From Microvenator sp. (lineage in GTDB: Bacteria; Myxococcota_A; Bradymonadia; Bradymonadales; Bradymonadaceae): 46,856 nt of DNA. The position numbers were made by a program, and so were the translations under genes. Position 1 is the stretch's first letter. Every line of letters begins with the position of its first letter. The stretch is from contig JBFFMO010000001.1 in assembly GCA_041554035.1 (NCBI GenBank), forward strand, positions 1-46,856. The letters run 5' to 3'. This document shows, piece by piece, positions 1,442 to 46,856 of the stretch. The notes beneath the pieces were generated by a model. The model searched no databases. It was not told the DNA's origin and worked only from the letters and a program-made list of their open reading frames with translations.

Positions 1442-2581
1442 ATGGCTAAAGACAAGAACGCTCTACCATCACGCTTCAAAGGTAAGGGGAAGCGCCATGG
1501 CCGTGGCATCATACGGGAAACCACTTGCGGCACCTTTGTGGCTGAATTCTGCTACAAAGGAAAGCAAGTACGAAGAGCATTCAAACGCCGCGAACAGGCA
1601 AAAGAATGGCTCCACCAAGCGGAAATAATGGCCTTGAATAGACTGAGTCCACTGAATGCCGTTGAAGAGTTCGACGCAAAAGAGGCGCTGGCCCTCCTGC
1701 CAGACGGTGTAAAACTGTGCGATGCCGTAAACCACTGGCTGGCCCGCAATCCACAACACGACAAAAGCTTGTTACTTGACGAGGCAATAGACAGGTTCCT
1801 GAAAGACAAACAAGACGCCAACCTGAGCCCGGTGTCGCTTAGAAATTTACGGCAAACACTGAACAACATCGACGCCTTTTTTCCCGATCGTTCGCTGGTC
1901 AGCATTACTGCCGACGACCTGTTGAGATGGATGGACGAGCGAGGTTATCAAGCAACCAACCGCGCCAACCGCCGCAGGATTTTGAGCAACTTTTTCGGCT
2001 GGTGCATAAAACGTGGCTACACGTCTATCAACCCGGTCGACGGGATCACTGTGCCGAGGGTAGAAGAAAAATTGCCCGAGGTGTTTACGGTCGACCAAGT
2101 CCGGGATACTATGAAGGCAGCGCAAGAGGTATCGCCCGAACTGGTGGCCTACTTTGCAATAGGATTTTTTGCAGGTATACGTCCCACAGAATTGACCAGG
2201 CTCGAATGGGAAAGCATAACCGACACACATATCCACGTCGGGGGGAAAGTCGCCAAAATACGCAAACAGCGTTACGTGGAAATTTTGCCCAACCTGAAGG
2301 AGTGGCTGGCTACGTGTAAGTCCAAAAAAGGACGAATCGCTCCCCTGACGCCAACAGAACTACGCAACAGAGTGCGCAAGGTGCGCGATGCGATCGGGCT
2401 TAAGAAGTGGCCCAAAGACATAACGCGCCATTCATTTGCCACGTACCATCTGGCAAAATTCCAAGATGCCCCACGAACATCGCTTGAACTTGGGCACCTG
2501 AAACCGGACACGCTGTACAATCATTATCGGGCTCTCGCCACCAAAAACGACGGGATCGAGTTTTTCCAGATAATTCCATGA
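1442..2581 (+). CDS. int: Tyrosine recombinase / phage integrase
   Basis: Catalytic signature AGIRPTEL, ITRHSFATYH and GHLKPDTLYNHY (R...H-x-x-R...H...Y). Lies directly upstream of the tRNA-like attP core. ATG 1442 has GGGAG upstream; the ORF-track ATG 1400 has no RBS. Confidence 0.9.
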   Translation: MAKDKNALPSRFKGKGKRHGRGIIRETTCGTFVAEFCYKGKQVRRAFKRREQAKEWLHQAEIMALNRLSPLNAVEEFDAKEALALLPDGVKLCDAVNHWLARNPQHDKSLLLDEAIDRFLKDKQDANLSPVSLRNLRQTLNNIDAFFPDRSLVSITADDLLRWMDERGYQATNRANRRRILSNFFGWCIKRGYTSINPVDGITVPRVEEKLPEVFTVDQVRDTMKAAQEVSPELVAYFAIGFFAGIRPTELTRLEWESITDTHIHVGGKVAKIRKQRYVEILPNLKEWLATCKSKKGRIAPLTPTELRNRVRKVRDAIGLKKWPKDITRHSFATYHLAKFQDAPRTSLELGHLKPDTLYNHYRALATKNDGIEFFQIIP

Positions 2582-2641
2582 AATAGCCTGTTTTTAGTAC
2601 ATACGGACATAAGTCTTTTAGAATCAACAATCGCCTAACCT

Positions 2642-2686
2642 CTGATAAGCGTGAGGTCGGTGGTTCGAGTCCACCTAGGCCCACCA
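2642..2686 (+). other. attP core: 3' half of a tRNA-Ile(GAU) gene (not a functional tRNA)
   Basis: Anticodon loop CTGATAA, 3' anticodon stem GCGTG, variable AGGTC, T-arm GGTGG-TTCGAGT-CCACC, acceptor TAGGCCC, then A and CCA. No 5' partner: upstream AACCT cannot pair with GCGTG, and no GGGCCTA occurs within 90 nt. Confidence 0.8.
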
Positions 2687-2704
2687 CTAAAAAAGATTCT
2701 GAAA

Positions 2705-2737
2705 CCCCAACAAAACGCGATTTTGTTGGGGTTTTTT
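2705..2737 (+). terminator. Rho-independent terminator
   Basis: Perfect 11-bp stem CCCCAACAAAA / TTTTGTTGGGG, 5-nt loop CGCGA, then TTTTTT. Confidence 0.8.
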
Positions 2738-2778
2738 CATGTCTTGCGGCTTTTTCTGGCTCTTTCCCGTTTTCCAGT

Positions 2779-2818
2779 TAGTGTTCAGTAGTGTTCAATA
2801 ATGTGCATTAGTGTGTGT
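2779..2818. repeat. Array A: four contiguous 10-bp repeats, consensus TAGTGTTC
   Basis: TAGTGTTCAG / TAGTGTTCAA / TAATGTGCAT / TAGTGTGTGT, exact 10-bp phasing. About 95 bp 3' of the attP core and about 60 bp 5' of the cassette promoter. Confidence 0.8.
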
Positions 2819-2875
2819 TTTTTTAGTACATTCTTAGTACTCCTTTAATTCTTTTAATTTTTTTGATTTTTTATA

Positions 2876-2903
2876 TTGACAAGGCGTTTTTTAGTGGTAT
2901 GCT
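2876..2903 (+). promoter_or_regulatory. Sigma70-like promoter of the accessory cassette
   Basis: TTGACA (2876-2881), 16-nt spacer, TATGCT (2898-2903). T/A-rich tract upstream (CTTTAATTCTTTTAATTTTTTTGATTTTTT). Confidence 0.5.
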
Positions 2904-2966
2904 TAAACCCGAGTCGAGGGACAAGAGATTCAACCCCTCGTAAAAACAAAAAGGAGACTCGAAAAA

Positions 2967-3437
2967 ATGACCAGCACAGCAACCAACAAAAAAATCAAAT
3001 CACTCAAGCCGCTTTTAAATACATATCTGGCCACCAGTAAAGAAGCGAAAAAATGGGGCGCAATTATTCGGGCGTTTACTGTCGCGGAATTAAATCGTGT
3101 CGAGTATATGCTCTCGGAAGAATGGGCGGACGACGAAAGGCTTGCAAAACGCATAACTGACCCGAAACTCACATATCTCATGAGTGAAACCGATATAGAG
3201 TTATTCTCTGCGGAACAGCGCGCATACGTTGAAACATTGGGGCTCGAATGGTTGCCGGAAGGGAATTGCCCTGCTTTGTACACTGAAAACGAACAAAGAA
3301 AAGCGGCCCGCGCTATGCTTATCGCGACTGGCAAGGCCTTGGGACTCGACCTTTCGCCCGAAAGCGTTATGATTCTCGGGCCGGAAAAATATCAAGAAAC
3401 CATCGCTTCGGTCGTTGGGTTGATTCAAAACGCATAA
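2967..3437 (+). CDS. Hypothetical protein, accessory cassette gene 1 (156 aa)
   Basis: AAGGAG RBS 10 nt upstream of the ATG. No motif recognised. Confidence 0.7.
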   Translation: MTSTATNKKIKSLKPLLNTYLATSKEAKKWGAIIRAFTVAELNRVEYMLSEEWADDERLAKRITDPKLTYLMSETDIELFSAEQRAYVETLGLEWLPEGNCPALYTENEQRKAARAMLIATGKALGLDLSPESVMILGPEKYQETIASVVGLIQNA

Positions 3438-3454
3438 ATGGGGCAAGACCACCG

Positions 3455-3472
3455 GGGCGGCTTCGGTCGCCC
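3455..3472 (+). terminator. UUCG-tetraloop hairpin between cassette genes 1 and 2 (attenuator or stabiliser; weak U-tract)
   Basis: GGGCGGC-TTCG-GTCGCCC (7-bp stem with one G-T pair), followed by TCTAATATCT. Confidence 0.3.
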
Positions 3473-3501
3473 TCTAATATCTCACAAAAAGGAGAGTAAA
3501 A

Positions 3502-3834
3502 ATGATCAACTACAGAGGCAACGAAAACGGTAGAATCAGAATCGAAGCAGACAGCGTGCAAGAGTTTGTCGAACGCTATCAGCCGGACGGATGCACCACC
3601 TGCAACTACGACGAAGAAACCGGCTTCATCGCATTCGAAAACGAGCACGTCAAAATCTACCCCGTGCGCGTTGGTGCAAGCGGACTCGGACCCGGAACAA
3701 TAAGATGGCAATGGTTCGACGAACGCAGACCCGATTGCTCCGAATCTGCCGACCCAAAAGCCAGACGCGCACGCAAAGGCTTCACGCAAGCGACCGCGCA
3801 AAAAGCATGGGATTTCGCACGGGGGAATAAATAA
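3502..3834 (+). CDS. Hypothetical protein, accessory cassette gene 2 (110 aa)
   Basis: Strong RBS AAAGGAGAG upstream. Basic C-terminal tail. No family recognised. Confidence 0.7.
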   Translation: MINYRGNENGRIRIEADSVQEFVERYQPDGCTTCNYDEETGFIAFENEHVKIYPVRVGASGLGPGTIRWQWFDERRPDCSESADPKARRARKGFTQATAQKAWDFARGNK

Positions 3835-3835
3835 A

Positions 3836-4030
3836 ATGGCTAAAGCAGGACGACCAAAAGCAGAGACCAAAAAGACCTTCAAGACAATCGGGGTGACCAG
3901 CGAACTGCTCGACAAGTTCGACCGCATAAGTGTCCAGGTACAGGCCAAGCGGGGGCAGATATACAAACGCCCGGAACTACTGGAACTCGCGCTGGATGCT
4001 TTGGCGGAGAGGGAGGGGGTTGAGTTATGA
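3836..4030 (+). CDS. Putative ribbon-helix-helix (CopG/Arc/omega-like) DNA-binding protein (64 aa)
   Basis: Basic N-tail (AGRPKAETKK), predicted beta-strand KTIGVT, then two helices (SELLDKFDRIS, RPELLELALDALAERE). Starts 1 nt after the gene-2 stop and overlaps gene 4 by ATGA. Confidence 0.55.
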   Translation: MAKAGRPKAETKKTFKTIGVTSELLDKFDRISVQVQAKRGQIYKRPELLELALDALAEREGVEL

Positions 4031-4440
4031 AGACACCAGGGAGCAGCACCATAGAAGGGCTTCGCTCACCCATCTCTGTCATGGAGTTTGTGGGCAGGAA
4101 TATCTATAAAAATGGGTCGTGGCGCATGACCGACATTGAAGAGGTTCTTGATGTCATTGAGAAAATGGTACACGACTTCTTTCATAAAGCAGGGCCACCC
4201 ATTAAACGAGACCGGCTGTGCATAATCACGTCGCCCAGCATGTGGGAGTTGATTAAAGTCAAAGCCGTAGATAGTAATGGAAGGCCAATTTGTCTACAAC
4301 ATGATGAATCATTCAGGGGGATTGCCGTAATTTGTGACAAACGATTCATAGTCCCCGGCGGCGGGCGATTGTCGTTGGTGCTTTGCGAAAAAAAAGGTCA
4401 CGACTTCTTGTTAGAGAATTCCGCCGGGGTTCTTTACTGA
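4027..4440 (+). CDS. Hypothetical protein, accessory cassette gene 4 (137 aa); possible HK97-fold capsid-like fragment
   Basis: ATGA-coupled to the RHH gene. IITSPSMWELIKVKAVDSNGRP...FRGIAVICDKRFIVPGG recalls the nP-x-x-W...kD-x-x-Gr...l-G-x-PV pattern of HK97-family capsid C-termini (from memory, not searched). Confidence 0.6.
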   Translation: MKTPGSSTIEGLRSPISVMEFVGRNIYKNGSWRMTDIEEVLDVIEKMVHDFFHKAGPPIKRDRLCIITSPSMWELIKVKAVDSNGRPICLQHDESFRGIAVICDKRFIVPGGGRLSLVLCEKKGHDFLLENSAGVLY

Positions 4441-4910
4441 GGCCAGCACAGCCGCCCAGACCTAAGCGTTTCCGCAATACGCCCGGCACGTTCGGGCGTT
4501 TGCTCTTTCGCCCACCGGCTGTCAAGTGCCTCGGTCGCCGCCTCTGACCAGTTCCGAGCGTCCACCGCTGCGCACATCCTCCGGAAACCCGCCACGCCCC
4601 CCCGCCCGAGTTGAAAGATCATCGAGAGCAGAGCGATCCGGCGCGGGATGTTGATCCCGTCCGGGGAGAACAACAGCCGGAAGTCCTGCTTGATTTGCGC
4701 GATCTCGGTTTCGTGGACGGCGTAGATGCGAAGCAGGGGCCACTGGTCGCCAACCTGGTACTTCTCGCACTCCGCCTTGCTCAAGAGGTGGCCGATCCCG
4801 ACCGTGGGAAACTCAAGCGAATCGAGATAAACCCGCTCCCGCAGCCCCTCTTCGGCCAGTAGATGCGCCCGCAGGTTCCCTTCAAAAACACCTTCTGACA
4901 TCTCGCTCAT
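4434..4910 (-). CDS. Endolysin, GH24 (T4-type) lysozyme
   Basis: AEEGLRERVYLDSLEFPTVGIGH has the T4-lysozyme catalytic spacing E-9-D-6-T. No N-terminal hydrophobic segment. ATGA-coupled to the upstream lipoprotein gene. Confidence 0.85.
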   Translation of the reverse strand: MSEMSEGVFEGNLRAHLLAEEGLRERVYLDSLEFPTVGIGHLLSKAECEKYQVGDQWPLLRIYAVHETEIAQIKQDFRLLFSPDGINIPRRIALLSMIFQLGRGGVAGFRRMCAAVDARNWSEAATEALDSRWAKEQTPERAGRIAETLRSGRLCWPQ

Positions 4911-5516: not shown

Positions 5517-8500
5517 CTACAGCAGGCTCGGGCCTTCGGCGTAGCCGGTTGCGCCGTTCTGGGGTAGTTCCGGGCCGTCGTTCAGGCTGGCCTCGTCAAT
5601 CTGAACGTGGACGGCACCGAGGTTGATGCCGGAATAAGAAAGGAAGGCGATGGAATAATCGAAAACAAGGCTGCTGTCGATAATGAGGCCGTTGCTGTCT
5701 GTGTCGGCTGTGCCGGAAAACGACAGAAGCCACGAGTCGAAGACATCCTGAAGGCTCACGCTTGTTGGATTGTCAATGCCTGGCCCCAGGGTTCCAATGG
5801 CGTACTCTGCGCCCTCGTGCAAATGATCCAACAAATATTTGATTATCTCTGTGACGTCTACCGTCCCGCGATAGGAGTAAACGCCTGTCGTGATTTCCAC
5901 CTTAGTCAGGCCACTGGTTGGCACGGCCACCGACACGGGGGTGTAGCCGGTGACATCGCCATACTCATCGCGAGACACCTCAAACATGACCGTGTGCAGG
6001 GCGATGTAGTCCAGCGTGGAAGGTGTTGACCATTCTGCCGATCCGCCCGTGCGGTCTACATGCCCCGACTCTTCATAGATAGTTGCGCTCGTCAATTCGA
6101 GTTCTACCCATGCAAGAGCAATGTTGCTTGAGGCGAACCGGCGCAGATTACTTGGAAGGCCGAAGCCTACCAAGCCAGTCGAGGCCGAAAGAGTGATGCC
6201 GCCTTCGTCCGCAATTTGGCCGATGCCAATGCTGCCACCGCCAGAGCCATTCGGGAGACATCCGGACGAATCCCAAGGCACGGGAGGGGAGGTTAAAGCA
6301 TAGTTTGCCTTGGTAAGGCTAACGCCGGTCGCGCTGGATGCCCCCGCGTTGAGGTCATAGCCAAACACCGTGTAGTTCTGACTGTCGATAACCGCAGTAA
6401 ATGTCACGCCCCCGATCCCGCTCCCGGCATAGGGAGCCCCGGCATTGAACCAGCCAACGACGACCGCCGTGGTGAGGCAGCGATCCAGCGCGAGCATGTT
6501 CTCGACCGGGTGATTGGTGCGGGTGTCGTAGACGGTCATTTCGGCGTAGAGATTGTACTCGCCAGAGATCCACGCGCTCGCGTTGATGTAGAAAATGCCG
6601 TCCACCGGGTCATAGATGAAATCGTTCTCGCTGACGGCAGTGGCCACGCCGCCGGTCACGCGCTTCAGGGTCGGGGCGTAGCCGGTCGCGGTCCCTTCGT
6701 AGTCAATGGCCGGGGGGCTGATAGCGGAGTGCATCACGCTTGCGAGGGTCACGCCGGTGCCGTCGATGTCGCCAAGATTCTGGAACAGTTGGCCGTTGCG
6801 CCCTTCCAGCGAGCAGATCACCACGTCGCGCTTGTTGTAGTTCGCCCGGGTGAAGTCGGGAATACCGGTGGCGTGAACGGTGGGGGCGATCGCGCTGGTG
6901 TCCGCCGCCCCTGCGTAGGCTTTGGCCGCGAGTACTTGCAGGGCCACGCCATCGATGCCGGTGAAGGTCAGGACGTCGCCGGGGTAGACCTTGGCCTGCC
7001 GGTCGCCGATGCGGGTGCGCGAGACCTTCCAGTTGGTAATCTCGTGTGCGATATCCGGGGCGACCACATTCCCCGCGAAGTGGCAGTATTGCGTCTTGCG
7101 TTCATATTCTGTCCCGTTGAATTCGTCGTAAATCAACTGCACTTGCTGCGGCGCGAACTCCAACTGAATAAGACCGGGGCCGATCAGGGTCGCGGTGGCC
7201 ACCGTGCCAACGACGCTCTTGGTCTGGCGCGTCTTCGGCTCGAAAACGGTCTCGTCGAACCGGGGCACTTGCCACTTGATCGTATAGAGCCACGGCGTGC
7301 CAGGCGAAGCAACGGGGGCCATCTCCTGAGTGGCGTCGTAAACGGTCAGGCTCGTGCGCTCATCGTTGAGCAATAGCGTGCCGTCTCCCGGCAGGTCGAA
7401 CTTGCGCGAGGCAAAGGTCTTGTTGACTGGCACCTGATGCATGTAGTCGCCCTGCCCGTCCAGAGAGGGCTTCAGGCTTCTCGGCATCACTCCTTGAATC
7501 CGGCGCGGCAGGCCAGCCTCGTGGGAGTAGCCAGGAGTGCGGTCGGCATCATCCACCAAAGCGCGGCTGGCGGACGTGGCCCCCGCTGGATCGGTTTTGA
7601 CGTTGCTCTGCGCAATGGCGTCGAGGATGCCGACCGCGTCGCTTTCGGGCTGGCTGTTGACCCGAAACTTTTGCTGGTACTCGCGGAAGTTCAGGAACTC
7701 GTCGTACCCATCGACAACGTCCTGCGTCCGGTAGCGCAGATAACCCTCACCCCAGAAATCTTTGTACAGCCCTTGACCTGTTGAGATTTCATAAAGCCCC
7801 TCGGGATAATAGCCAACCGGAAGGCCGAGCAACATCCACAGGCCCGTGAAGTCTTCGCGCCCGACGCGCCAGAAAAGATGCTCGAACAATGCGGATTCCG
7901 GGGCGGGCAATGGGTTCTTGCCGATCTGTCGCAGGTAGAGCCCCCGCGCCAAGAAAAACAGGCTGTAGTGCGCCGGGGCCGGGTAGTAGGGATCGTACGC
8001 CTCGTACAGCGGGCAGGCGGTGTTGTTGCACCGTTCCTTGTATTCCGAAAGGTCTACCGTGGGCTGATCCAGTTTGCCGCAATGGAACTGGCCATCTATG
8101 CCCGCCGATGCGGGGGCGGTCGGGTAGGCGGCTTTGTACGACGGGAACAGGTTGCCTTCCCGCTCGACAGAGAACTTGCACGGCAGGGGCGACGGGACTT
8201 CACTTGGAGAGAGCGACAGCGCGACGAAAGGAACTGAGGCAGGCTGTACCTGCTCGCGTAGCAGATACAACTTGTCTTCGCGGGTCGGGTCTAAAGGGCG
8301 GGAAAGGGTGAGAACTGCTCCGTGGGTTCCGCCGCTCTCTCCAAGAAAAGTCACGTCCAACACTTGTGCGGTGCCGTACTGCCCCCACCGGTCAGCGCGT
8401 ACCACGTCGCCCGGCATGATGCTCGTGGGGTTGCCGCCGTTGATGCTGCGATCCAGCGCACGGGGGTCGCCTATCACGAGGCTGTAGGTGCATTCGCAGC

Positions 8501-9191
8501 CTGTGCCGTAGGCGGTTTCGACGGCGGTCACGAGGTTTTGCAAGGTCGCGCTCAGCGTTCCTCCGATGGTTACCGGAATATTGCCTTCAGCGTAGTTGCT
8601 GTCACTGTCGAACTCAAACGCCTTCACGTCCGGAATAACATCGTCGTTTTCGTCTAACGTTTTCCATGTCACCACGACCGCGAAGCCGTCCGCTGGTTGC
8701 TCGAAAAAGGTTTCTGACCAGGTGTGGTCGCCGTTGTCGAAATCGGCGTTGAACACATATTGGTTGTTCGGCCAGGTGATCGTCACTTCTTCCGGGTTGG
8801 TCATGGCGATAGCAGGGAACTGGAACACATGGCAGTAGTTCGGATATGCGCCGAGACTTTCCTCCCCGTTGTAGCGGCTGCCATCCATCCACCCTTGCGG
8901 GCCGATCAGCAGGTAGTTCAGTTGCATCAGCCGCCGCCATGCGAGATAAACGAGTTGGCGCGTCGCGTCTGTGTTGCCTTTCTCAACCGCCGCATAGTCC
9001 GCCGACGATCCGGCGGGGTGTCTCCACGAGACCTGTCGCAGGCGCAGTTCTTCCGGGATGGCTCCGCCGTTGAAGTAGTTCTTCACCGTGGTTAGGCCAG
9101 TTGGTGCTGGCATGCCGTCCACAGGATCAATAGGCGGGGATGCGGGAGTCGTTGCGGGGATGTTCCAGATTTTCGCCTCACTCATCACCAT
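5517..9191 (-). CDS. Very large distal tail / host-specificity protein (1224 aa); function assigned by size and position only
   Basis: Start ATG 9191 (MVMSEAKIW) overlaps the stop of the upstream gene (ATGGTGA). The ORF-track extension to 9578 overlaps that gene. Confidence 0.7.
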   Translation of the reverse strand: MVMSEAKIWNIPATTPASPPIDPVDGMPAPTGLTTVKNYFNGGAIPEELRLRQVSWRHPAGSSADYAAVEKGNTDATRQLVYLAWRRLMQLNYLLIGPQGWMDGSRYNGEESLGAYPNYCHVFQFPAIAMTNPEEVTITWPNNQYVFNADFDNGDHTWSETFFEQPADGFAVVVTWKTLDENDDVIPDVKAFEFDSDSNYAEGNIPVTIGGTLSATLQNLVTAVETAYGTGCECTYSLVIGDPRALDRSINGGNPTSIMPGDVVRADRWGQYGTAQVLDVTFLGESGGTHGAVLTLSRPLDPTREDKLYLLREQVQPASVPFVALSLSPSEVPSPLPCKFSVEREGNLFPSYKAAYPTAPASAGIDGQFHCGKLDQPTVDLSEYKERCNNTACPLYEAYDPYYPAPAHYSLFFLARGLYLRQIGKNPLPAPESALFEHLFWRVGREDFTGLWMLLGLPVGYYPEGLYEISTGQGLYKDFWGEGYLRYRTQDVVDGYDEFLNFREYQQKFRVNSQPESDAVGILDAIAQSNVKTDPAGATSASRALVDDADRTPGYSHEAGLPRRIQGVMPRSLKPSLDGQGDYMHQVPVNKTFASRKFDLPGDGTLLLNDERTSLTVYDATQEMAPVASPGTPWLYTIKWQVPRFDETVFEPKTRQTKSVVGTVATATLIGPGLIQLEFAPQQVQLIYDEFNGTEYERKTQYCHFAGNVVAPDIAHEITNWKVSRTRIGDRQAKVYPGDVLTFTGIDGVALQVLAAKAYAGAADTSAIAPTVHATGIPDFTRANYNKRDVVICSLEGRNGQLFQNLGDIDGTGVTLASVMHSAISPPAIDYEGTATGYAPTLKRVTGGVATAVSENDFIYDPVDGIFYINASAWISGEYNLYAEMTVYDTRTNHPVENMLALDRCLTTAVVVGWFNAGAPYAGSGIGGVTFTAVIDSQNYTVFGYDLNAGASSATGVSLTKANYALTSPPVPWDSSGCLPNGSGGGSIGIGQIADEGGITLSASTGLVGFGLPSNLRRFASSNIALAWVELELTSATIYEESGHVDRTGGSAEWSTPSTLDYIALHTVMFEVSRDEYGDVTGYTPVSVAVPTSGLTKVEITTGVYSYRGTVDVTEIIKYLLDHLHEGAEYAIGTLGPGIDNPTSVSLQDVFDSWLLSFSGTADTDSNGLIIDSSLVFDYSIAFLSYSGINLGAVHVQIDEASLNDGPELPQNGATGYAEGPSLL

Positions 9192-11377
9192 TCCCCCTCG
9201 AAGTACACCAGACGGCTGCTGCTGCCACTTCCGCCTTTTTTCTTCGGAGTGCGGTCGGGCAGGTTGCCGGTGCGGGCCTGAAGTTTTGCAATGTCTCCGC
9301 GCATCGCCTTTATCTCTTTGGCCACCGCGCGCGGCCCACTCATGCCGGGGAACTCGACCAGCCCCGCCAGTTGCGCCACATCTATTTCGAGGTAGCCAGT
9401 CTGGATCGTGGTGGTCTGGCTCCGATGCTGGAAGTTCCAACTCTTGTGCGTGACGACCGTCCCGATTGAATGGCTCTCGCTCGATTGCAACACGCGGCGG
9501 ATATAAGTGCCGATGGGTGCGCTCCCGCCGATTCCCTTCACTGTCAGGTTCAAGGTCTGGCGTTTCTGCCCATACCACGCCATCGCCAGTGCGGCCACCT
9601 GTCGCAGGATCGGCGAGTCATCCCGCACGACTCCGCCCGCGTGATGCAGCAATGCGCCGTCCTTCACGCCGGTGACGGTTTGCGGGACGACGTACTGCGC
9701 CAGCGCATCCTCGACCGGGATCACGAGCGTCTCGGTCGGTGCGCCTGTTTGCGGGCGGCCCAGACTCGCCACCACGCGCAAGGTTTCGTCGCTCTCGAAA
9801 GATACGGTTGCCAGAAGGTTCTCATAGTCCACCACCGCCTCGGTGTCGCTCTGAACCATTGCGGGATCTGTGTCGAAATGGTTCAGGCCCAGAACATGGT
9901 TGATGTCGGCTGCGGTCTCGATGGCAAACTCCGTGTCTGTCATGCGCACCTGTGCCGTGCCGGTCTCTCCGGTTTCGATCTGCCGGTATGTCGTGCCCTC
10001 TTTCACCAGAACAAGCGGCTCCTGATACTCCGGGTCGGCCCCGGTCACGCTCGCTGGTTTCTTGAACGGGATCGTGCGCAGAAACGCCTTGCCATTAAAC
10101 AGCGAGTTGGCGGCGGCGGCAGTGTCCAGCGTGCCGTCGTCTTTCACCGTGGGCACCACGAGCCGCTTGGTCGATCCGAACGTCCCGTCGCCCGCCTTGA
10201 AGTTCCAGTCGCGCGGAACGCGGTGGTGCTGATAAACGCGCGGAAGGCGTGCCTGGCGTTCCTGATCGTTCAGCGCGGCGTCGGTCGTGTTCGCCATGTC
10301 GCCGAGGCTGTTGTAGAGCGTTTCCTCGGCAGCCGTCCACCCGCGCTCCAGTGTCCCTTCGGCGTAGGACAGCGAGCAGCACACCTGCACCGGCTGGCCA
10401 TGCACCTCGATGCGGTCGACCTGCTTCGCGCTCGATTCCTCAAAGGTCGCACTCTCGATGTTGCGATTGTCGGCCACGGGGATGCTGTCGATAATTCGCG
10501 AGTTGCCTGGCAGTGAAACGTTCAGGATGTTCAGCCCGTCGCCAAGCAGAGAAAAAACGTGGACATACACCGCGCCCGAGCCGCTCGTCTCCAGATTCCA
10601 CCCCATACCAAACTGGCGGGGGATAAGGTGGTCGAGGGCTTGCGCCAGCGTCAAACCGCGCAGCCGGTGCACGTCGGTAATGTTGGCCAGCATCTCGTAT
10701 TCGCCCGACAGCCCGCAGTACATCCCCTCGGGGGCGTGATAAACGAGGAGGTTTTCCACCACCTGCTGGTTGTTCCACACCTCATCGCCGCCGAAGACGT
10801 AGGCTTCCTCGACCTGCCCGGTGATCTCTACTTCCACGCCGACCTTGGCCGCTGACCGGTTGCCCACCAAACGCGGGCCGCCGTGACCGCCAGCCGTGTT
10901 GAAGTCCGGCATTCGGTTGATGCGGTCGGCTGGCCCCGATGCCGGGACAATGTAGGAGTGATTCAATGCCACGCGGTCAAAAATCTTGATCAGCCCCCAG
11001 GCGCGAATAGTCTGCATGCCGCTAACTCGTGCCGCGTCACTGCCGTCGACAGACTGGCCGCTGGTGGATATTTGCCCGTGCCACAGCGTTTCAGTTGGAC
11101 TCCCCGGCGTATGGCTGCGGATTTGCACGAACATCCTGTCGAGGTTCAGAGGAGTGTAAACGCCTTCGCGGGTTTCGCCCGGCTGCACAATGGCGCCGTA
11201 GCGGTAGAGGAACTCTGCGCTCCCGGCGAACGAACCGGCTGACCCATTGGCCGACTGCGGTTCGAGGTAGGAAAGCAGCGTCCACTCGTCGAACCACCGG
11301 GCTTTCACCCACGCAGTGACATACGCCTCTTGCAGGGCGGCGTCGGTTTCGGGCGGTGCGATCTGGAAAAGAGTCAT
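9185..11377 (-). CDS. Large tail structural protein (730 aa)
   Basis: Long ORF, ATGA-coupled on its 5' side. Position within the tail operon. No motif recognised. Confidence 0.7.
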   Translation of the reverse strand: MTLFQIAPPETDAALQEAYVTAWVKARWFDEWTLLSYLEPQSANGSAGSFAGSAEFLYRYGAIVQPGETREGVYTPLNLDRMFVQIRSHTPGSPTETLWHGQISTSGQSVDGSDAARVSGMQTIRAWGLIKIFDRVALNHSYIVPASGPADRINRMPDFNTAGGHGGPRLVGNRSAAKVGVEVEITGQVEEAYVFGGDEVWNNQQVVENLLVYHAPEGMYCGLSGEYEMLANITDVHRLRGLTLAQALDHLIPRQFGMGWNLETSGSGAVYVHVFSLLGDGLNILNVSLPGNSRIIDSIPVADNRNIESATFEESSAKQVDRIEVHGQPVQVCCSLSYAEGTLERGWTAAEETLYNSLGDMANTTDAALNDQERQARLPRVYQHHRVPRDWNFKAGDGTFGSTKRLVVPTVKDDGTLDTAAAANSLFNGKAFLRTIPFKKPASVTGADPEYQEPLVLVKEGTTYRQIETGETGTAQVRMTDTEFAIETAADINHVLGLNHFDTDPAMVQSDTEAVVDYENLLATVSFESDETLRVVASLGRPQTGAPTETLVIPVEDALAQYVVPQTVTGVKDGALLHHAGGVVRDDSPILRQVAALAMAWYGQKRQTLNLTVKGIGGSAPIGTYIRRVLQSSESHSIGTVVTHKSWNFQHRSQTTTIQTGYLEIDVAQLAGLVEFPGMSGPRAVAKEIKAMRGDIAKLQARTGNLPDRTPKKKGGSGSSSRLVYFEGEW

Positions 11378-28859: not shown

Positions 28860-28909
28860 TAGTGTTCCGTAATGTTCCGTAGTGTTCGGTAGTGTTCGGT
28901 AGCGTTTGC
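28860..28909. repeat. Array B: five contiguous 10-bp repeats, consensus TAGTGTTC
   Basis: TAGTGTTCCG / TAATGTTCCG / TAGTGTTCGG / TAGTGTTCGG / TAGCGTTTGC. Same motif, phasing and orientation as array A (2779-2818). Confidence 0.85.
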
Positions 28910-44295: not shown

Positions 44296-44373
44296 TTACA
44301 TACGTTTTAGGTCAATCATGGCCCCTACTGCGAAAAATATGCATGCGGCTATTAGCCAGAGTTGCGTTGTCAT
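44296..44373 (-). CDS. Candidate 25-aa hydrophobic micropeptide
   Basis: MTTQLWLIAACIFFAVGAMIDLKRM. The ATG overlaps the stop of the upstream gene (ATGA). Below the ORF-track size cut-off. Confidence 0.3.
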   Translation of the reverse strand: MTTQLWLIAACIFFAVGAMIDLKRM

Positions 44374-44810
44374 AGCCCCGCCCTTCGGTACAGTTCCGAG
44401 ACCGTGATCCCGAGCGCGTTAGCCAGTGCGGTGATATGCTCGCGGTTCAGTGGCTTCTCGCCCCGAATCAGTTTGTAGTAGTACGACTCGCCGATCCCGA
44501 TCAGACTGGCCAGTTGGGCCTTGGTTCTGATCCCTGCCTCAATGCGCAGTTTGTCGATCACGTCGAACAGGAAGAAATTCTGGCGCAGCACGTCCGGGGT
44601 TGTGCCGTCTATCTTCTTGGCTTTCTTTTTGGTCGGCTTCTCGGAGTCTTTCCACCCTGCGCACAGTGCCTCAACTGAGCAATGCGGCCCCACCAGCCGC
44701 CCGCACTCGCACTGTAGGACAAGGTGGTCATTGACCTTGTGCAGCGTCGCGGTTGTCGCGCCGCAGGTGCAGGGGTCGAGGTTCTCGTTTACTCCTGGCT
44801 TGATGTTCAT
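44370..44810 (-). CDS. Lar-like zinc ribbon fused to an XRE-type HTH (146 aa)
   Basis: N-terminal CTCG...CECG...ALCAGW. C-terminal TKAQLASLIGIGESYYYKLIRGEKPLNREHITALANALG HTH. Confidence 0.6.
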   Translation of the reverse strand: MNIKPGVNENLDPCTCGATTATLHKVNDHLVLQCECGRLVGPHCSVEALCAGWKDSEKPTKKKAKKIDGTTPDVLRQNFFLFDVIDKLRIEAGIRTKAQLASLIGIGESYYYKLIRGEKPLNREHITALANALGITVSELYRRAGL

Positions 44811-45978: not shown

Positions 45979-46188
45979 CTACCCTTTCGCAGTCTTCCGC
46001 CTGATCGCCCGGCGGGTTGGTTTCGTTTTCTGGAATGCCGCTCTCACACCTTGTCGGACAAGGTCGGCCAGCGCATGCGCATTCTCAAACGCAATTCCGT
46101 CCGGGAACTTGATCACGGGGTATCCGCCGACACACGGGTCAGGCATTACGATCTCAACTCTTCCGGTGAATGGGACGTATCCAGCCAT
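45979..46188 (-). CDS. Hypothetical protein (69 aa)
   Basis: ATG 46188 overlaps the upstream TGA (TGATG). The ORF-track GTG at 46191 is an alternative start. Confidence 0.5.
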   Translation of the reverse strand: MAGYVPFTGRVEIVMPDPCVGGYPVIKFPDGIAFENAHALADLVRQGVRAAFQKTKPTRRAIRRKTAKG

Positions 46189-46379
46189 CACAAAACCCCC
46201 CTGTGCGTCTTCGCGTTAATATAGTTCTCAAGGTCGTTCAACTTGACGCGCCTTTTCCTTGCTGAGAGAATGACCACCGGGAACGCGCCCGCCCGGATCA
46301 GCGAGCGCACCACGCCCTCGGAACATCGCAGTTCCTTGGCGGTATCTCTGATGGTGAGTAGTTGGGCTCTCGGTGTCAT
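46188..46379 (-). CDS. Excisionase/AlpA-like HTH_17 DNA-binding protein (63 aa)
   Basis: LLTIRDTAKELRCSEGVVRSLIRAGAFPVV...VKLNDLENYI. GGGAGAGGGA RBS before ATG 46379. Confidence 0.55.
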   Translation of the reverse strand: MTPRAQLLTIRDTAKELRCSEGVVRSLIRAGAFPVVILSARKRRVKLNDLENYINAKTHRGVL

Positions 46380-46425
46380 TTTGCGTCCCTCTCCCTCTCG
46401 CCCCGTCGCGGGGGCTGGCTCTACT

Positions 46426-46683
46426 TCACACGCCAACAATGTCGGTGTGGTCTTTGCTTTTCATGCCCAACGCTCTTGCGGCCTGTGCCATATCTCGCAA
46501 AGTCCATTTGGTTTCACCCTTCAACAATCGCGTGACGCGGCCTTTTTCCCAACCGGCGCGGCGCGCGAACTCTGTTTGCGTCCACTTGCGCTTGGCTATT
46601 TGTTGTCCAATGAAACGGTTGTAGCGCACTTCTTCGGGCAACAGTTGTTTGCTTTTCGTCACTTTTCGTTCTCCGTTAGTCAT
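46426..46683 (-). CDS. Cro-like HTH regulator, first gene of the early (lytic) operon (85 aa)
   Basis: WTQTEFARRAGWEKGRVTRLLKGE HTH. Divergent from the 134..373 gene across the operator region. Confidence 0.75.
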   Translation of the reverse strand: MTNGERKVTKSKQLLPEEVRYNRFIGQQIAKRKWTQTEFARRAGWEKGRVTRLLKGETKWTLRDMAQAARALGMKSKDHTDIVGV

Positions 46684-46715: not shown

Positions 46716-46856
46716 TAATGGTAAATTAGATATAATGCAACAAAATTCTATTGCAAATAATGCAATCAAATTTTTCTTGTATTCTATTGCGTTTAGGGGA
46801 TATAGTGATTTTAGAGTTGTAAATATTGCAACAGGGGGTAATGCGAAAATGTCGAA
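46716..46856. repeat. Exact 141-bp terminal redundancy (copy 2)
   Basis: Identical to 1-141. Ends with the first 8 nt (ATGTCGAA) of the 134..373 CDS. Confidence 0.9.

Follow-up and report, generated by a model that had tools for sequence, protein, structure and literature searches.

The window analysed here is the whole stretch of 46,856 nucleotides of contig JBFFMO010000001.1 (Microvenator sp., assembly GCA_041554035.1), and the element in question is a cassette of four plus-strand genes, g1 to g4, located between the phage attachment site attP and the lysozyme (endolysin) gene. Judging from the sequence, this cassette is probably a moron-type accessory operon of a temperate phage, placed in a slot that is not essential, with attP on one side and the end of the late and lysis genes on the other. 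The window begins and ends with identical stretches of 141 bases (1-141 = 46716-46856), and therefore the assembly is taken as circular, with about 46.7 kb (~46,715 bp). The plus strand carries, in this order, the XRE regulators, a zinc-ribbon protein, the integrase, attP and the cassette, and all other coding lies on the minus strand. The remaining plus-strand open reading frames (ORFs) with a positive coding score are each contained in a minus-strand gene of much higher score, in accordance with the claim of an earlier, sequence-only reading of this DNA that the cassette is the sole plus-strand block outside the lysogeny module.

Signals and setting of the cassette

The cassette comprises g1 (2967-3437, 156 amino acids (aa)), g2 (3502-3834, 110 aa), g3 (3836-4030, 64 aa) and g4 (4027-4440, 137 aa), all on the plus strand, and it converges with the lysozyme gene (4434-4910, minus strand), the last gene of the minus-strand block, whose product is matched by Pfam Phage_lysozyme (7.6e-9) and by PHROG endolysin or tail lysozyme families. 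A log-likelihood score of codon usage, for which 18 long structural genes of the window served as training set, was compared among the six frames; the annotated frame obtained the best score in each of the four genes, and the long antisense ORFs at 2930-3334 and 3367-3966 scored negatively. The four ORFs described in the sequence-only reading are thus backed by codon usage, and the junctions reported there were also recovered: g3 starts 1 nt past the stop of g2, the start of g4 overlaps the stop of g3 by 4 nt (ATGA, 4027-4030), and g4 and the convergent lysozyme gene overlap by 7 nt. Along the cassette the ORFs are separated by gaps or overlaps of 1-4 nt, except for one 64-nt spacer. The strong AAGGAG-type ribosome-binding site formerly attributed to every gene holds for g1 and g2, where it lies 10 and 7 nt upstream of the start, respectively, but not for g4, which displays GGAGG 10 nt upstream, nor for g3, which has no Shine-Dalgarno core and consequently must depend on coupling to g2.

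In front of g1, a sigma-70-type promoter with an extended -10 TG (TTGACA-N16-(TG)TATGCT, 2876-2903, plus strand) is recognized by its match to the consensus, and is preceded by an A/T tract (~2846-2875) in a region, 2690-2966, with only 35% G+C. Three promoter-like sites with at least 10 of 12 matches are found on both strands of the window, and the one at 2876-2903 is alone in having a perfect -35 together with the TG, and alone in being intergenic before a gene of the same strand. The near-consensus promoter with its upstream A/T tract, already pointed out in the sequence-only reading, is in fact the best site of the window. On its 5' side, a hairpin terminator (2702-2739, plus strand) displays a perfect 14-bp stem (AAACCCCAACAAAA/TTTTGTTGGGGTTT; inverted repeat I2, 100% complementary) followed by a T run, with a folding energy of -24.3 kcal/mol (z = -3.4) that was not attained by any of 200 shuffled sequences. 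An Rfam scan of 2400-4700 returned a sub-threshold chance match on this hairpin and nothing else.

Two other plus-strand hairpins are found downstream. The first, in the intergenic region between g1 and g2 (3454-3473), is GC-rich, with 8 bp and a UUCG loop but no T run, and is not significant on its own (z = -1.8); it could represent a sub-module boundary, acting as an RNA stabilizer or processing site. The second, terminator-like (4479-4509, with the hairpin at 4479-4499), has 8 bp, six of them G-C, and a T-rich tail, and falls within the lysozyme gene, at its 3' end, where we tentatively place the likely end of the cassette transcript.

The attP core (2642-2690, plus strand) corresponds to a tRNA-Ile(GAU) gene from its anticodon loop through the CCA, which is the 3' half, as indicated by blastn matches to tRNA-Ile genes, and the previously claimed adjacency of the cassette to attP is hence sustained. 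The 45-mer at 2642-2686 occurs exactly in 95 stretches of bacterial genome DNA, and several phyla share the tRNA-Ile core without a difference. No whole tRNA was detected by ARAGORN, and no related prophage was found beside the matching tRNA-Ile genes. In the P' arm of attP, between the 2702-2739 terminator and the cassette promoter, three to four direct repeats resembling TAGTGTTCAG (2779-2814, plus strand; family D1 of the repeat search) are arranged with a 10-nt spacing, that is, one helical turn, and probably constitute binding sites for a recombination protein. A repeat of sequence TTTTTAGTACAT is found near the attP core at 2591 and 2820, and the octamer TTTTTAGT has four copies in the window, all within 2591-2895 (2591, 2686 on the minus strand, 2820 and 2888), the last of which (2888-2895, plus strand) is located inside the promoter spacer. 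The heptamer TTAGTAC is present in the window solely at 2594, 2823 and 2834. The copies of TTTTTAGT and of TTAGTAC are likely to be arm-type sites for a recombination protein, and the octamer in the spacer may couple the promoter to the occupancy of such a site by Int or Xis.

Based on these signals, we hypothesize that the host sigma-70 RNA polymerase would transcribe the cassette from its own near-consensus promoter, originating a transcript that shares its strand with the repressor and integrase module, all lytic genes being read in the other direction. The upstream hairpin, as a predicted insulator of the cassette against read-through, would halt transcription coming from int and, after integration, from the rebuilt tRNA-Ile gene, which it would also follow, and the transcript would probably end at the 4479-4499 hairpin within the lysozyme gene. 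On the minus strand, no convincing terminator is found between the lysozyme stop and about position 2700, and for this reason late lytic transcription would probably run antisense through the whole cassette. Such antisense transcription would in turn favor expression of the cassette when the late genes are off, either in the lysogen or right after infection. In the integrated state, the rebuilt tRNA-Ile, the terminator, the P' arm and the cassette would constitute one end of the prophage, with the cassette reading inward, in agreement with the prophage-end position expected by the sequence-only reading. The unit appears to combine two sub-modules, g1 being a stand-alone member of a helical family and g2, g3 and g4 a translationally coupled trio of orphans; within the trio, the small basic g3 would most likely bind DNA as an autoregulator, with g2 and g4 as the effectors. 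The function of the whole is probably related to conflict, be it exclusion, defence or counter-defence.

The concept of the moron was put forward by Juhala and Hendrix, and lom and bor of lambda as well as gp15 of HK97 are examples of it. Similarly to morons, the cassette is self-contained, has its own promoter (a consensus match) and is flanked by terminators, a strong hairpin upstream and a weak site downstream; furthermore, it lies near a prophage end, opposite to the late genes, and its base composition is unlike that of the structural genes (49.5% G+C, versus 57.9% in the late genes). In contrast to morons, it comprises four genes instead of the usual one or two, and its G+C content equals that of the neighboring lysogeny module (49.9%), so that its former description as AT-richer is correct with respect to the late genes but not with respect to that module. 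This likeness is read from sequence signals, and no related phage was found in which the genes flanking the cassette could be seen side by side. The view of the cassette as an independent accessory unit agrees with its own promoter, its upstream terminator and its orientation against the lytic genes. The cassette proteins were also searched for homology to virion and replication genes, which the sequence-only reading regarded as contradicting it, and none was found. A second known arrangement that may be compared is the b region of lambda, a dispensable stretch that separates the tail-fibre genes from attP and whose genes are mostly transcribed from phage promoters. The cassette resembles it in its position, flanked by attP and the end of the late genes, and in its dispensable-looking content, but shares no sequence similarity with it and possesses a dedicated sigma-70 promoter. 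The cassette is a further case of the well-known orphan accessory cargo found at prophage ends, although the proteins are new, and nothing shows a new mechanism. If active, it would enlarge the repertoire of prophage accessory and conflict genes by new protein families; at present, its main practical value resides in a well-delimited construct, 2850-4510, with clear signals.

The g1 family and the timing of expression

The four cassette proteins, concatenated, were compared by HMMER with 1.84 billion cluster representatives in an exhaustive scan (E up to 1e-3). For g1, 54 relatives were obtained (E 6e-16 to 8e-4), with 26-42% identity over nearly the full length of the protein (g1 residues 11-153 for the best one), whereas g2, g3 and g4 displayed none. 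The statement of the sequence-only reading that three of the products match nothing recognizable, namely those of 156, 110 and 137 aa, is therefore accurate for g2 and g4 and has to be abandoned for g1. Each of the four proteins is a singleton cluster, known from this contig only; a word-indexed search of 5.8 billion clusters with g1, g2 and g4 recovered the query itself and nothing else, and tblastn with the cassette proteins against GenBank phages gave nothing significant. Likewise, no significant match was obtained for g1, g2, g3 or g4 in Pfam, PHROGs, NCBIfam, PADLOC or the PDB.

The relatives of g1 are metagenomic proteins of 142-268 aa, mostly ~160-200 aa, whose source labels are absent or read 'hypothetical protein'. 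Their alignment reveals two motifs, ERITDPK..YLM and G.CPAL.AE, and three invariant residues, L42, C101 and P102. By its sequence, g1 is assigned to an unnamed and uncharacterized protein family from phage-like contigs. No significant match was found for 37 members of the family against Pfam, PHROGs and NCBIfam, nor for g1 in scans of IMG/VR and GTDB genomes, and searches of PDB sequences with the g1 profile and with each of the four cassette proteins gave nothing, the matches to RecA fusion chains having no stretch that passes alone. The AlphaFold2 model of g1, built on the family alignment, is all-helical and confident (predicted local distance difference test (pLDDT) 96.8, predicted template modelling (TM) score 0.85), and places the invariant Cys101-Pro102 at the start of a helix. 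The Foldseek comparison proposed with the sequence-only reading was run with this model and gave no PDB match below E = 1. In BFVD it gave a single match, A0A8S5SVW2 (E 9e-3, TM 0.61/0.71), an uncharacterized protein of Siphoviridae sp. ctqPo10. Thus g1 resembles its family in identity and in the ERITDPK and CPALxAE motifs, and appears to share the predicted fold of A0A8S5SVW2. With a confident predicted fold and no PDB counterpart, the g1 family is the most interesting concrete by-product of this analysis, and an active cassette would provide a first experimental handle for this family of at least 54 members on phage-like contigs.

The genomic context was read for nine of the relatives, and all nine belong to arrays of small genes that run along one strand of phage-like contigs. 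One follows a Dam methylase gene on a 93-kb contig (L004), another is the first gene opposite a divergent helix-turn-helix (HTH) gene (L017), and others lie inside a divergent operon (L016), behind an HTH_3 gene and a small P22-like gene (L018), and some 1.5 kb away from a cI-like repressor (L007). Several of the nine adjoin repressor-type HTH genes. None of the nine has an integrase or an att site beside it. No relatives of g2, g3 or g4 were detected by tblastn in these loci, and no conserved partner accompanies the g1 relatives, whose immediate neighbors are mutually unrelated. Since the relatives occur without g2-g4 and with varying neighbors, the four genes do not form a conserved system, and g1 is to be seen as a stand-alone accessory gene; in the present window, unlike in those arrays, it heads a cassette beside attP. 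In two of the loci, the small gene just downstream of the g1 relative (L012 764-922 and L018 4733-4984) encodes a product which, on visual inspection, resembles ribbon-helix-helix proteins, and BLASTP showed no relation of these two proteins to g3 or to each other.

These contexts point to an accessory role at the infection stage as much as to a role expressed in the lysogen, and they favor the main rival explanation, which partly overlaps with the moron-type operon. According to it, the cassette would be an early-infection accessory operon, dedicated to host takeover or counter-defence, whose strong constitutive promoter would be fired by the host RNA polymerase on DNA entry and in which g1 and the orphans would act against host functions or defences. 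We regard this as possible, without expecting it to prevail. In its favor, the promoter needs no phage factor, and the nine relatives of g1 sit in same-strand arrays of small genes and not beside an integrase. On the other hand, every recognizable lytic gene of the window lies on the other strand, the strand of the cassette is that of the repressor and int, and no match to any structurally solved anti-defence protein was found. Moreover, an early function and expression from the prophage are not mutually exclusive.

A number of observations count against a moron-type operon expressed from the prophage. Expression in the lysogen is made less certain by the nine g1 relatives themselves, because they are found in small-gene arrays and not beside att sites. 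The base composition gives no mark of a separate acquisition, since the G+C content of the cassette is the same as that of the adjacent lysogeny module. The promoter and the terminators are consensus matches only, and the hairpin at 4479-4499, proposed as the end of the transcript, is weak (fold z = -1.3). Among the four genes, g4 has the lowest codon score, 0.065 bits per codon, a value scarcely above zero, even though its frame is still the best of six. Finally, no related phage or prophage was found in the collections searched (a megablast of 24 kb gave no match), and the terminase of the phage is at most ~35% identical to that of any GenBank phage.

The orphan genes g2, g3 and g4

The product of g2 is very hydrophilic (grand average of hydropathy -0.96); it carries a CxxC (residues 31-34), and its C-terminal tail is basic. 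Its best Pfam match, DUF6882, falls below threshold (E 0.008, 16.4 bits versus a cut-off of 23.9 bits) and is uninformative on function; the one paper found to mention this domain is unrelated. The product of g3 is basic (isoelectric point (pI) 9.45) and its sequence follows a ribbon-helix-helix-like pattern, and that of g4 has a pI of 8.4 and four Cys. A single-sequence AlphaFold2 model of g4 is disordered and unusable, with a pLDDT of 46.9, and on this account it was kept out of the fold search.

The sequence-only reading had taken g3 for a ribbon-helix-helix regulator or antitoxin. As a reference, an alignment of 12 classical ribbon-helix-helix domains was used. Compared by hhalign with these 12 domains, g3 aligned in the expected strand-helix-helix register, with insertions of four and two residues, at P = 0.039. 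No ribbon-helix-helix family was found among the Pfam matches of g3 at E up to 1, and no hidden Markov model (HMM) or PDB sequence matched it. The earlier assignment is accordingly compatible with the alignment, in a weak manner, and finds no echo in the HMM searches, so that, from its sequence, g3 as a ribbon-helix-helix protein is plausible but unproven.

If g3 were an antitoxin and autorepressor of this type, then g4 could be a toxin of a new family, and the pair, possibly together with g2, would represent a type II toxin-antitoxin or abortive-infection module that stabilizes the prophage or kills superinfected cells. The arrangement is reminiscent of ParD/ParE, CopG-family/RelE and FitA/FitB, in which a small basic putative DNA-binding protein is followed by a protein of ~140 aa with a 4-nt overlap, and g3 and g4 reproduce it with their ATGA overlap and a downstream protein of 137 aa; the alignment of g3 with the 12 reference domains in the correct register also speaks for it. 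Nevertheless, the ATGA overlap, in spite of indicating tight coupling, is nonspecific because it is common in phage operons, a start that overlaps the preceding stop being usual for phage genes in general. No HMM lends significance to the ribbon-helix-helix call, and g2, g3 and g4 match no toxin family in Pfam, NCBIfam or PADLOC. For g4 in particular, toxin families were searched for in Pfam, NCBIfam, PADLOC, PHROGs and the PDB with no match, and in the absence of relatives among ~15 billion proteins it belongs to no known toxin family. The g3-g4 pair was found as a conserved unit nowhere else among those proteins, being unique to this genome, whereas toxin-antitoxin families are typically widespread and mobile; as the pair is not conserved anywhere, co-occurrence lends it no evidence. 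We therefore consider a toxin-antitoxin pair unlikely.

The sequence-only reading had gone further and suggested that the whole unit could be a superinfection-immunity or abortive-infection module. Nothing was found that ties the cassette to superinfection immunity, abortive infection or toxin-antitoxin activity: the PADLOC check that it proposed was run with PADLOC-DB v2 and, at E up to 1, yielded 0 families for each of the four proteins, and no significant match came from Pfam, NCBIfam or PHROGs. These searches thus lend no support to a toxin-antitoxin or defence role of the cassette. A broader version, in which the cassette is a prophage-borne conflict system made of proteins without known relatives or folds, with a divergent ribbon-helix-helix g3 controlling the orphan effectors g2 and g4 and with g1 as the first member in a tractable genomic setting of a phage accessory family that has an invariant Cys-Pro at a helix start and a fold unmatched in the PDB, appears improbable.

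Some of the ORFs, g4 above all, might instead be non-functional, either remnants in decay or ORFs that arose by chance, in a spacer that is not essential. The lack of relatives of g2-g4, the low codon score of g4 and the disordered model of its product are in line with this, but the annotated frame is the best of six in the four genes, the starts are provided with Shine-Dalgarno sequences or coupled at the correct spacing, the ORFs are tightly tiled, and orphan status is common in genuine phage accessory genes, which leaves this explanation very unlikely. That g4 would be a C-terminal fragment of an HK97-type major capsid protein (PF05065), a decoy or a recombination relic, was suggested by a weak PHROG match (phrog_10, major head protein, E 0.5) and by the resemblance by eye of residues 66-88 (IITSPSMWELIK..DSNGRPI) to the NPxDW...GRY motif of HK97 gp5, and is effectively refuted, since a profile of 15 diverse HK97-type capsid proteins scores g4 at -1.3 bits, with 71 of 2000 shuffled g4 sequences equal or better and the alignment confined to 23 residues, and BLASTP against HK97 gp5 (whose sequence as used here matched public contigs at 100%) and against the lambda-E-type capsid protein of the phage itself gave nothing.

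Other features of the phage genome

Preceding the cassette on the plus strand, the lysogeny block contains two genes for XRE-type regulators (20-373 and 540-869), the gene of a zinc-ribbon membrane protein (1001-1372) and that of a tyrosine integrase (1400-2581), the latter just before attP. As the genome is circular, the XRE-type gene at 20-373 and a cro-like gene on the minus strand (46426-46683) are divergent neighbors. The protein encoded at 1001-1372, between the XRE regulators and int, has 123 aa and combines a CPxCG...CPxCG zinc ribbon with a C-terminal half that is hydrophobic, and its PHROG matches are to families of unknown function only; its position is more classical for a lysogen-expressed exclusion protein than that of the cassette. 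Just downstream of the cro-like gene, an excisionase-like HTH protein is encoded at 46188-46439 (minus strand).

Further into the minus-strand block, a protein of 1353 aa encoded at 5517-9578 adjoins the lysis region and is probably a tail fibre or spike, with no PHROG match at E up to 1e-3. Its true start is probably further downstream, because the listed GTG start overlaps an upstream ORF of 730 aa by ~390 nt. A second cluster of the motif TAGTGT, at 28860, 28880 and 28890 (28860-28895), lies between the portal and terminase gene blocks and could be a pac/cos-related or regulatory site. In the early operon, an additional XRE-type regulator, with a Cys-rich N-terminal region, is encoded at 44370-44810 on the minus strand.

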